Assembly: GCF_006345805.1 (NCBI RefSeq)
Contig: NW_021824830.1
Span: 1-17,452 of the forward strand
Length of the DNA stretch: 17,452 bases
Origin: Octopus sinensis
Lineage: Eukaryota
Reading direction: 5' to 3'
A program made the translations under genes and the position numbers. This document shows, in pieces, positions 3,859 through 12,447 of the stretch (position 1 is the stretch's first letter; each line of letters starts with the position of its first letter). Under the pieces are notes generated by a model. It was not told the DNA's origin. It was given only the letters and a program-made list of their open reading frames with translations, and did not search any database.

Positions 3859-4156
3859 TATATATATATATATATATAATAAAATAGGGTAATAATAAAT
3901 TATTATTACCAGTGGGCTAGCACAAAAAGATGCTTTCCTATTTGGAAGCCTCTTATCGTATTTATATATATATATATATATATAAATTAATTGTTATCGC
4001 CATATTAATATGGCATTCTTATAGATATAAGAATAATCGCTGCCGCTGGTCAGCTCCATGAACCCACCGCCATCAAGATAGCTATTGATACACAATCTGT
4101 ATCCATTATAACCTTCGAACAAGGGAGGTCAGCCGCTTCACACTGCCAGTCCGACA

Positions 4157-4198
4157 GCTACAGACGCGTTTCGGGGTATTGCCCCTTGTCAATGTAGC
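4157..4198 (-). ncRNA. Identical hammerhead ribozyme copy on the opposite strand
   Basis: Exact reverse complement of 4345-4386 inside the left inverted arm. Confidence 0.8.
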
Positions 4199-4344
4199 GC
4201 AGTCAGACCCGTAATCTCTTTTATAGAAACTTAGTAATTTTAATATTTCTATTATTGAAAACAAGTGGATGTATTCCACTGAAACTAGGTAAATAGAAAC
4301 CTTCGAACAGAGACGTCAGTGGCGACACCTGCGGGTCTGACTGC

Positions 4345-4386
4345 GCTACATTGACAAGGGGCAATACCCCGAAACGCGTCTGTAGC
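4345..4386 (+). ncRNA. Minimal type I hammerhead ribozyme, U3-A8 core variant
   Basis: Stem I GCTACA(4345-50)/TGTAGC(4381-86); core TTGACAA(4351-57); stem II GGGG-CAATA-CCCC; GAAA(4371-74); palindromic stem III A-CGCG-T; GUC triplet with predicted cut after C4380. Confidence 0.85.
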
Positions 4387-4845
4387 TGTCGGACTGGCAG
4401 TGTGAAGCGGCTGACCTCCCTTGTTCGAAGGTTATAATGGATACAGATCGTGTATCAATAGCTATCTTGATGGCGGTGGCCTCATGGAGCTGACCAGCGG
4501 CAGCGATTATTCTTATATCTATAAGAATGCCATATTAATATGGCGATAACAATTAATTTCCAGTAAACGCTGCCGTAATCTCTTTTATAGAGACTTAGTA
4601 ATTTTAATATTTCTATTATATATATATATATATATATTTATCGACATTTTCCTGCTTCCAAAATGGAGGCGAACACTTTTCTCTACGAGATCGACTTGAA
4701 GAATTGTTAAGTCACTCGAATATTTTCCACTTCTTTCTTAACATGAAACTAATGGCAGACTTAGTTTACAAATAAAGAAATTATATCCACCAATGCTGTG
4801 TCAATCGTTCATTTTTATCGTTTGACATTACGTAGATACATATAT

Positions 4846-5408: not shown

Positions 5409-6195
5409 GGACGGCGAGCTGGCAGAAACGTTAGCATGCCGGGCGAAATGCTTAGCCGTATTTCGTTTACCGTTACGTTCTGAGTTCAAATTCCGCCGAG
5501 GTCTACTTTGCCATTCATTCTTCTGGTGTCGATAAATTAATTACCAGTTACGCACTGGTGGTCGATGTAATCGAATTAATCCGTTTGTCTGTCCTTGTTT
5601 GTCCTCTCTGTGTTTAGCCCCTTCTGGGTAGTAAAGAAATAGGTATTTCTTCTGCCGTTACGTTCTGAGTTCAAATATCACCGAGGTCGACTTTGCCTTT
5701 TATCCGTTCGGAGTTGATTAAATAAGTACGAATTACGCACTGGGGTCGATATAATCGACTTAATCCGTTTGTCTGTCCTTGTTTGTCCCTTCTGTGTTTA
5801 GCCCCTTGCGGGTAGTAAAGAAATAGGTATTTCGTCTGCCGTTACGTTCGGAATTCAAATTCTCTCGCGGTCGATGTTGTCTTTCATCCTTTCGGGGTCG
5901 ATTAAATAAGTACCAGTTACGCACTGGGGGCGATGTAATCGACTTAATCCGTTTGTCTGTCCTTGTTTGTCCGCTCTGTGTTTAACCCCTTGTGGGTAGT
6001 AAAGAAATAGGTATTACGTCTGCCGCTACGTTCGGATTTCAAATATCACAGAGGTCGACGTTGCCTTTCATCCTTTCGGGATCTATTAAATAAGTACCAG
6101 TTACGCACTGGGGTCGATATAATCGACTTAATCCGTTTGTCTGTCCTTGTTTGTCCCCTCTAAGTTTAGGCCCCTTGTGGGCAATAAAGAAATAA
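5409..6195 (+). mobile_element. SINE family B with one head and four tandem ~184-bp body units
   Basis: Head GGACGGCGAGCTGGCAGAAACGTTAGC (A-box-like); units start at 5457, 5642, 5826 and 6010, each with a B-box-like GTTCAAAT(T/A) variant and CCTTTCATCCTTTCGGGGTCGAT-like core; ends AATAAAGAAATAA. Confidence 0.9.
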
Positions 6196-6907: not shown

Positions 6908-7292
6908 TTGTGGAGGCGAAATGGCCCAGTGGTTAGGGCAGCGGACTCGCGGTCATAGGATCGCGGTTTCGATTCCCAGACCGGGCGTTGTGAGTGTTTA
7001 TTGAGTGAAAACACCTAAAGCTCCACGAGGCTCCGGCAGGGATGGTGGTGATCCCTGCTGTACTCTTTCACCACAACTTTCTCTCACTCTTACTTCCTGT
7101 TTCTGTTGTACCTGTATTTCAAAGGGCCGGCCTTGTCACTCTCTGTGTCACGCTGAATATCCCCGAGAACTACGTTAAGGGTACACGTGTCTGTGGAGTG
7201 CTCAGCCACTTACACGTTAATTTAACGAGCAGGCTGTTCCGTTGATTCGGATCAACCGGAACCCTCGTTGTCGTAACCGACGGAATGCTTCC
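6908..7292 (+). mobile_element. tRNA-derived SINE family C, full length, 12-bp TSD
   Basis: tRNA-like head TGGCCCAGTGGTTAGGGC...GGTTTCGATTCC; TSD ATATATTTTGCT at 6896-6907 and 7293-7304; near-identical to 11383-11764. Confidence 0.92.
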
Positions 7293-7906
7293 ATATATTT
7301 TGCTGGATATCCATCCCCAACCCCTAAGAAAACGCTGCTAAAAGAATCTGGTTTCCTTGAGTAGCACTTACTAGCAAATGCCAATGTTTATCTCTACTTT
7401 ACATTAGAATATAATAAATATTAAATTATTTATGTTCTTATGAATGCTATATATATTTTCCGACAAAATAGGTTTATATTTTTTCCATAACTAAAACTGA
7501 TTTGTAGTTATTACGATGTTTTTACACGAGGCATATAAAGATATACTTTTGTTTAACTTAGAACAACGCCAACTCGTTATTTCGAGTAATACTTTCACGA
7601 GACGATCAACGATTTATGCAACATATTACACTTCATTTAACATGTAAAGAAACGACAATTTCATCCTATTAACACAATTTATCCGTTCATATGAATGGGT
7701 GTTTTGATAAAAACAGTTTCAATATCATTTATAGTTGTCTATATTATTTTTTCAAATCCTATTAAAAAACTTTTAGACTTAATTATAACCTTAATTTAAT
7801 TATCATCTCTGCTTGCTTATTAATCAGTTAGTCTTTACTTTAAATTATCTTTAAAGTCTCTTCCAGACATAGGTTTCAAAGTATGCAATGTGCATTTCTG
7901 ACTTAC

Positions 7907-11382: not shown

Positions 11383-11764
11383 GTGGAGGCGCAATGGCCC
11401 AGTGGTTAGGGCAGTGGACTCGCGGTCGTAGGATCGCGGTTTCGATTCCCAGACCGGGTGTTGTGAGTGTTTATTGAGCGAAAACACCTAAAGCTCCACG
11501 CGGCTCCGGCAGGGATGGTGGTGATCCCTACTGTACTCTTTCACCACAACTTTCTCTCACTCTTACTTCCTGTTTCTGTTGTACCTGTATTTCAAAGGGC
11601 CGGCCTTGTCACTCTCTGTGTCACGCTGACTATCCCCGAGAACTACGTTAAGGGTACACGTATCTGTAGAGTGCTCAGCCACTTACACGTTAATTTCACG
11701 AGCAGGCTGTTCCGTTGATCAGATCAACCGGAACCCTCATCGTCGTAACCGACTGAGTGCTTCC
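11383..11764 (+). mobile_element. tRNA-derived SINE family C, full length, 14-bp TSD
   Basis: TSD ATCGCTATCTTCTA at 11369-11382 and 11765-11778; tRNA-like A and B boxes. Confidence 0.93.
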
Positions 11765-11852
11765 ATCGCTATCTTCTACCTCACACATAACACTAGCGTG
11801 TCCAAAATAAGACTTAATCTAAATAATATACATTACATATATAAATAATAAA

Positions 11853-12094
11853 GGCGGTGAGCTAGCTGGCAGAATCGATAGCACGCCAGGCGAAATGCTT
11901 AGCAGTATTTCGTTTGCCGCTACGTTCTGAGTTCAAATTCCGCCGAGGTCGACTTTGCCTTTCATCCTTTCGGGGCCAATAAGTAAAGTAACGGTTTCGC
12001 ACTGGGGTCGATGTAATCGACTTAATCCCTTTGTCTGTCCTTGTTTGTCCCCTCTATGTTTAGCCCCTTGTGGGTAGTAAAGAAATGGGTATTT
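11853..12094 (+). mobile_element. SINE family B
   Basis: Head plus one body unit, ending in AGAAATGGGTATTT. Confidence 0.88.
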
Positions 12095-12097
12095 AAA

Positions 12098-12447
12098 GGC
12101 GGCGAGCTGGCAGAAACTTTAGCACGGCAGGCGAAATGCGTAGCCGTATTTCGTCTGCAGTTACGTTCCGAGTTCAAATTCCGCCGAGGTCGACTTTGCC
12201 TTTCATTCTTTCGGGGTCGATTAAATAAGTACCAGTTACGCACTGGAGTCGATATAATCGACTTAATCCGTTTGTCTGTCCTTGTTTGTCCTCACTGTGT
12301 TTAGCCCCTTGTGGGCAGGAAAGAAATAACTATTTCGTCTATCTGCACTTTCTGAGTTCAAATTCCGCTAAAGTTTACTTTGCCTTCCATCATTTCGGGG
12401 GCCGATAAATTAAGTACCAATGAAACTTTGGGGTCGATGAAATTGAC
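12098..12447 (+). mobile_element. SINE family B, head plus one full and one partial, more diverged body unit
   Basis: GGCGGCGAGCTGGCAGAAAC head; the second unit begins ~12331 (tatttcgtct...gagttcaaattcc). Confidence 0.88.

Follow-up and report, generated by a model that had tools for sequence, protein, structure and literature searches.

The window, which is the whole 17,452-nucleotide stretch of Octopus sinensis DNA analysed here, very probably carries at 3984-4619 a single insertion of a young, ORF-less hammerhead tandem repeat (a non-LTR retrozyme), likely pasted into a TA tract in trans by a Penelope-like reverse transcriptase (RT) with a GIY-YIG endonuclease. The original prediction had reported a 364-bp unit bracketed by a 47-bp direct repeat, and self-comparison of the sequence confirmed this repeat (4209-4255 and 4573-4619, 47 nt, 98% identical, spacing 364). 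The unit had also been described as non-coding; it contained no stop-free stretch of 80 codons, including across the unit-unit junction. A 228-nt inverted arm at 3984-4211, a 99% identical inverted copy of 4332-4559 with three mismatches to the direct arm, had been missed, so the insert spans 636 bp and is larger than described. The placement in a (TA)n tract holds for the whole insert, which lies between TA tracts; the 364-bp unit itself touches (TA)n only at its right end. The insert and its borders are laid out as follows.

3963-3983, no strand: left (TA)n target tract, read from the sequence.
3984-4211, minus strand: inverted, 5'-truncated arm corresponding to unit positions 124-351 (228 nt, 99%); outwards it stops at the first of the family's two fixed 3' ends.
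4157-4198, minus strand: second hammerhead motif, within the inverted arm (motif scan; coordinates mapped from the inverted-repeat alignment).
4209-4211, no strand: 3-nt overlap of both arms at the inversion junction (self-comparison).
4209-4572, plus strand: one 364-nt period of the tandem unit, subfamily A, 43% GC, no ORF (fold z -8.3).
4261-4273, plus strand: weak match (4.7 bits, not above shuffles) to the host U1/U2 upstream element, a candidate internal snRNA-type promoter, 57 nt before the LINE landing position of subfamily B.
4298-4433, plus strand: long irregular hairpin extending helix I, with the hammerhead at its tip (fold; 3 pairs with two-sided changes between haplotypes).
4318-4334, plus strand: equivalent of subfamily B's 17-bp LINE target, empty and differing at 4 of 17 bases (sequence comparison).
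4345-4386, plus strand: type I hammerhead motif with canonical helix sizes, a U3-A8 core and a predicted cut at C4380/T4381 (motif, fold, conservation; definitions from the available passages of PMC4209133).
4560-4619, plus strand: 60-nt 'tail' between the fixed 3' ends 4559 and 4619, the two putative reverse-transcription start sites (end tally; analogy with PMC11167929, as far as its available passages go).
4573-4619, plus strand: start of the next unit, identical with the right 47-bp copy of the original prediction, ending at the second fixed 3' end (self-comparison).
4620-4637, no strand: right (TA)n target tract, read from the sequence.

Other repeats were seen elsewhere in the window. 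Positions 5458-6194 and 11864-12327 hold tandem arrays of 184 nt (4 copies) and 241 nt (1.9 copies) belonging to one common interspersed repeat unrelated to the insert, and positions 6910-7294 and 11383-11766 are two 385-nt copies of another interspersed repeat, 95.6% identical.

A genome search, which the original prediction had proposed, was carried out with a 411-nt query and returned 2,183 candidate places in the 2.72-Gb genome. Among the 40 places that were scored, the best 41 matches were 97-100% identical and lay on many contigs. The hammerhead pattern of the family matched the genome exactly 1,410 times and its reversed control 0 times, a difference far beyond chance. Most of these matches belonged to subfamily B, which is about 86% identical to the window's subfamily A; a 32-mer specific to subfamily A had 143 exact genome matches. 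Mean substitution from the subfamily majority was 1.4% for A (24 units) and 2.2% for B (54 units). The tandem period was 364/362 nt, and across 74 loci the ORF-less tandems ranged from less than one to about 11 units. One subfamily-A unit contained an inserted 780-bp SINE-like repeat with internal tandem units of its own (L005:2085-2866).

The complete type I hammerhead of the original prediction was borne out by the motif as read from the sequence, by its fold (z -2.6) and by conservation. Helix I pairs 4345-4350 with 4381-4386 (6 bp) and is followed by the core UUGACAA at 4351-4357, in which U3-A8 replaces C3-G8. Helix II has 4 bp and the loop CAAUA; then come GAAA and the palindromic CGCG, helix III having 1-2 bp with a palindromic loop, and cleavage is predicted after C4380. 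ViennaRNA cannot score the 2-nt loop of helix III. We take the loop CAAUA and a UGC/UAC bulge to resemble the loop 1-loop 2 tertiary contact of schistosomes. An Rfam scan of the window copy gave no hammerhead match up to E 10, and the call therefore rests on motif, fold and conservation; the other Rfam matches were rejected as microsatellite artefacts. The helix sizes and the palindromic loop follow the canonical animal type I layout given in the available passages of PMC4209133. These also describe the U3-A8 pair, present in 16 of our 16 rows, as a covariant form reported from schistosome motifs of Penelope-like elements (PLEs). Compared with the minimal PLE hammerhead, the octopus helices are canonical (6 bp and 4 bp), yet U3-A8 has been described from PLE-associated motifs.

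Helix I continues into the long hairpin at 4298-4433, and self-folding of the unit was far above that of shuffles (z -8.3). Across 16 hand-chosen, related rows, 94.6% of the cells in the hairpin were paired, compared with 31-43% in slid controls. Two-sided changes occurred at 3 pairs, all in the extension, a count not above shuffles (392 of 500) among rows that are related; the core helices had no two-sided change among the 16 rows. The share of paired cells indicated that the structure is kept across haplotypes. From its sequence the unit is predicted to cleave itself, probably as a double hammerhead, and two intact motifs one unit apart were present in 9 of 39 loci sampled in genome order. 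With a single hammerhead on each strand, the window copy could not release a monomer; it is an ordinary member of the family and probably a dead end.

We tallied the ends of the insertions in 74 distinct loci, counting each insertion once and excluding loci that bear the LINE; 27 of the 74 came from a full-length search, which is biased to the longer end. Among 117 3' ends, 61 were at unit positions 40-53 (window 4619), 51 at 333-354 (window 4559) and 5 elsewhere. Two fixed sites 60 nt apart took 112 of the 117 ends, and TA or TAA repeats adjoined 105 of these 112. Inverted arms were present in 43 of the 74 loci, and 38 of the 43 had one end of each kind. Free 5' ends (n=31) scattered over unit positions 3 to 327, and the unit-derived length per locus varied from 215 to 4,056 nt. 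The 39 genome-order loci, which are free of the full-length bias, gave 31 and 28 ends at the two fixed sites and 2 elsewhere, and 22 of them were inverted.

The family thus shows partial tandems, 5' truncation, an inverted 5' copy, a tail at one end and an AT-rich or (TA)n target. The layout described for PLEs (PMC8557442, in its available passages) likewise has tandems that are partial, a tail at one end and an inverted copy lacking its 5' part. The enzyme of an anole element nicks both strands of AT-rich DNA in vitro and starts reverse transcription at two internal sites bracketing the tail; cleavage is not needed for this element, and uncut RNA is its main template (PMC11167929, likewise in the passages available). 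Poseidon of Anolis, the general PLE layout and the octopus family agree in having a hammerhead and AT-rich targets, a tail lying between two internal 3' ends, tandems that are partial and an inverted copy truncated at its 5' end. The octopus unit differs from PLEs in having no ORF and a tail of 60 nt, compared with the 30-40 nt described. Since the footprint matches both the PLE descriptions and the anole results in vitro, we infer the same process here: the two fixed ends within TA repeats likely mark pasting by a borrowed Penelope-type enzyme.

The footprint also changes how the 47-bp repeat is read. The original prediction had taken 'one monomer plus a short overlap' as the insertion unit and as a sign of a circle. 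This reading did not hold: the left 47-bp copy starts at the inversion point of this particular copy, the right one ends at a fixed, family-wide site, and 5' ends elsewhere scatter over unit 3-327. The repeat is the product of the fixed right end and the chance inversion point of the window copy.

In class, the family is a retrozyme. It consists of a tandem unit within 150-450 bp bearing a type I hammerhead in each unit, has no coding capacity, is below 50% GC (43%) and is strongly self-paired; no LTR layout was seen in the family loci inspected. By every feature that can be tested from sequence, it agrees with the metazoan non-LTR retrozymes (PMC7229834), whose repeats in mussel are 350-390 bp long and for which circles of the same size were shown in mussel (Cervera and de la Pena 2020). 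Both are short ORF-less tandems with one type I hammerhead per unit, GC below 50%, strong self-pairing and co-existing PLEs. The octopus family differs in its U3-A8 core and in its short, dispersed arrays. It has fixed 3' ends, inverted arms and TA targets, none of which is described in the available passages of PMC7229834. Circles, shown for those retrozymes, are putative in the octopus family. The class is already published for mussel, coral and amphibians, and the octopus family is an additional member. The text of PMC7229834 gave no match for octopus or cephalopod, and our literature search (Repbase/Dfam and subscription journals being outside its scope) found no primary report of a retrozyme in octopus, nor of an octopus Penelope hammerhead.

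The original prediction of a young, non-autonomous, hammerhead-bearing family with marks of Penelope-type mobilisation was supported. It had also stated that the element would be an ordinary PLE remnant if its copies occurred only as the terminal repeat (pLTR) of an autonomous family. In the loci sampled, no such arrangement was found. A Penelope ORF adjoined the unit in 0 of 74 family loci. By blastn or profile, the unit served as a sense terminal repeat in 0 of 80 GIY-YIG loci, a sample of thousands of candidates with Naiad-type families left out (30 top loci, 20 hand-picked stretches of other families and 30 of a divergent family). On these two counts, the element is a non-autonomous retrozyme. 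Because none of the 80 GIY-YIG loci held an autonomous partner sharing sequence with the unit, the link to Penelope is drawn from the footprint and not from homology.

Autonomous PLEs do co-occur in the genome, with open RT and GIY-YIG frames of 781 codons (L093:1532-3874) and 775 codons (L091:2245-4569). The 781-codon frame recurs at several loci, and its family may therefore be active. The sampled autonomous families have unrelated 3' repeats of their own and minimal hammerheads. At one locus (L047), a diverged copy of the unit follows a Penelope frame at a distance of 1.25 kb and is oriented the opposite way, which is best read as chance. Local alignment of the unit to 12 Penelope 3' regions placed 3 of the 12 (L044, L276 and, marginally, L045) above the best of 60 shuffles; these alignments were AT-rich and gapped, and homology was rejected. 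Profile matches in L091, L057 and L275 were traced to different hammerhead repeats that had inserted close by. In a divergent Penelope-type family (L273-L302; 8,002 candidate places), a hammerhead-like motif with U3-A8 occurs and the 3' ends fall at two sites some 60 nt from each other; the family has no convincing sequence likeness to the unit and is no more than a lead towards a partner.

A second hammerhead repeat family was also observed (L243-L272, L091:5452-5772 and L275; 1,911 candidate places), with a 352-nt period, a C3-G8 core, a similar hairpin run and its own two 3' ends about 44 nt apart. Further relatives of it, about 70% alike, occur in L057 and L006. A piece of this 352-nt family is joined directly to a subfamily-A unit at L026:1288-1376, and another adjoins a unit in L151; both junctions are possible template switches between families.

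Two unlinked subfamily-B loci shared 1.5 kb of upstream sequence, which was part of a 5,352-bp LINE with a zinc-knuckle ORF1 and an APE-RT-zinc-finger ORF2. From this architecture, we take the LINE to be Tx1-like, presumably a member of the Tx1 clade; the closest named relative of one of its proteins was from Argonauta hians. On either side of the LINE stands a copy of unit positions 111-127, a 17-bp duplication. With a LINE-only query, the 3' end was readable in 29 of 30 fetched loci, and 28 of the 29 ran into the 17-bp target. All 26 exact LINE-target junctions in the genome were B-type. Subfamily A had none of these 26, with about 2.6 expected from its share of roughly a tenth of the motifs (143 vs 1,410), and the LINE was absent from the 1.5-kb flanks of all 60 subfamily-A loci fetched. 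Five successive units of one array each hold a LINE. LINE copies within arrays share no private substitutions, which indicates that they were inserted one by one, and copying of retrozyme and LINE as one 5.7-kb unit was rejected on this ground. LINE-bearing loci are L161, L162 and L193-L242 (e.g. G000:C3:72498000-72531900); L197-L199 contain LINE-on-LINE stacks with one target copy between.

Known Tx1-clade elements insert likewise at one site of a multicopy sequence, including mobile elements: Tx1 in Tx1D, Keno in U2 and Tx1-Mar in Mariner-N4 (PMC4494074, with Tx1 targets also in PMC4640811, both in their available passages). The octopus LINE shares with them the two-ORF APE-RT architecture and insertion at one site of a repeat. 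It differs in that its target is a retrozyme unit, in the sister subfamily and not in the window copy, its clade being a provisional assignment from architecture. No report of a Tx1 element in a hammerhead repeat was found in the literature search.

The site used by the LINE may bear on transcription of the unit. An ATCAGT-like element was present at -56 to -61 in 39 of 39 U1/U2 upstream regions (one LINE-occupied locus left out). The promoter matrix of these 39 regions gave a weak match 57 nt before the LINE site, ranking first in subfamily B and second in A and not above shuffles (150 and 212 of 500), and the corresponding site of the 352-nt family was not picked out by it. Two relatives of the LINE adjoin U2 or U1 sequence: one (88%) has its end at the first bases of a U2 gene (L322:3-1500), and the other (86%) follows the first 17 bases of U1 (L307:2325-3194). 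By position only, these placements support a putative transcription start of the unit at the LINE site. Newt satellite 2, a hammerhead tandem of about 330 bp, has a reported snRNA-type promoter (cited in the available passages of PMC2220036), whereas the octopus promoter is a weak positional hint.

We propose that the two nicked target strands would serve as primers for reverse transcription within the RNA, each strand at its own fixed site, and that the two resulting back-to-back arms would then be joined at a short overlap. Counting back from 4619, the cut site is reached after 239 nt, yet the direct arm extends over 411 nt, and a cut site lies within the inverted arm too. As both arms cross the cleavage site, one cut linear monomer read once cannot be the template. 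The template would be longer than a cut monomer: a circle, a multimer that stayed uncut, or a monomer to which the enzyme returns by template jumps. Its transcription might start near 4318 from the candidate internal snRNA-type promoter. Within a locus, the units of both arms are of one haplotype. In subfamily B, 114 variants were fixed in all covering units of their locus, 110 were singletons (some of them surely assembly errors) and 26 occurred in subsets, mostly in three long arrays. The shared haplotype favours repeated reading of one unit, and homogeneous multimer transcripts are also compatible with it; on balance we lean slightly towards repeated reading. In the three long arrays, variants are shared in blocks, with a period of 2 (alternating units) in L121 and with a repeated block of 4 units in L156 and in L157; such patterns are better explained by local duplication or by multimer templates than by a single monomer circle. 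Circular RNA is plausible for the family. Part of the unit was present as contigs in 14 runs guessed to be RNA, a kind of record that cannot show ends, strand or circles. Among Xenopus retrozyme dimers, 8 of 9 did not cleave in vitro (bioRxiv 10.64898/2026.07.22.740005, in its available passages).

A fuller scheme can be imagined, which we regard as speculative and rather doubtful. In it, Penelope enzymes would read a self-cleaved 364-nt circle repeatedly from two fixed sites, and each unit would carry an snRNA-type promoter. The retrozyme's transcription start would have become the new target of a Tx1-like LINE lineage whose other targets are the first 17 bases of U1/U2 genes, the LINE thereby marking and borrowing the promoter, and the window's subfamily would have drifted out of the LINE's reach.

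The main finding was weighed against three other explanations. The unit might be only the pLTR of an autonomous Penelope family, its copies being 5'-truncated remnants. Such copies would have the same ends, inversions and TA targets as those observed, Xenopus retrozymes do resemble pLTRs (the same preprint, as far as available), and the 80 GIY-YIG loci were drawn from thousands of candidates without Naiad-type families. However, what lies upstream of a unit is another unit, up to about 11 in a row (L157), and not a Penelope ORF in any of the 74 loci. The unrelated 3' repeats and minimal hammerheads of the sampled autonomous families, together with the diverged, distant and oppositely oriented state of the sole copy near a Penelope frame, also speak against this explanation, and we consider it very improbable. 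Still less credible is mobilisation by the Tx1-like LINE, with the retrozyme as a SINE-like passenger or part of a composite. That LINE is young (copies 96-100% identical) and nearly always lies within a unit, but the 17-bp duplication of unit sequence around it indicates that the LINE inserted into the unit. The LINEs of one array lack shared private substitutions and are often closer to copies elsewhere, and most retrozyme loci are free of the LINE, with ends that lie in TA tracts at the two fixed sites.

A stronger competitor, though an unlikely one, is that a short piece moves and that arrays grow later in place by unequal crossing-over or slippage, the hammerhead being a passive relic. 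The block-shared variants in L121, L156 and L157 agree with such growth, the scenario was offered in the 2026 preprint (bioRxiv 10.64898/2026.07.22.740005, in its available passages), and cleavage is dispensable in the anole system. Against it, the multi-unit arms of L117, L158 and L203 lie on both strands, share one haplotype and show both fixed ends, an outcome not readily expected of in-place expansion, and the hammerhead motif is exact at 1,410 places across subfamilies 14% apart. In-place expansion may still explain the longest arrays. We thus prefer a non-autonomous retrozyme pasted in trans by a Penelope-type enzyme.

On the grounds of co-occurrence and similar repeats, Penelope has been put forward as a partner with which animal retrozymes may spread. 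Li, Clavereau and Pollet (bioRxiv 10.64898/2026.07.22.740005, in the passages available) proposed vertebrate retrozymes, similar in length to the octopus unit, as non-autonomous PLE derivatives. Their argument is drawn from co-occurrence and pLTR similarity and leaves the mechanism to be shown, whereas the octopus case is one of an insertion footprint, with no homologous pLTR found. The octopus insertions, which are young and number in the hundreds, carry the footprint of the one Penelope enzyme that has been studied in vitro. Through the site-specific LINE, a retrozyme joins the known LINE targets, and there is a way of approaching where transcription of the repeat starts. The footprint itself names two exact putative start sites (4559 and 4619) and a target, which makes mobilisation directly testable with intact ORFs of the same genome.
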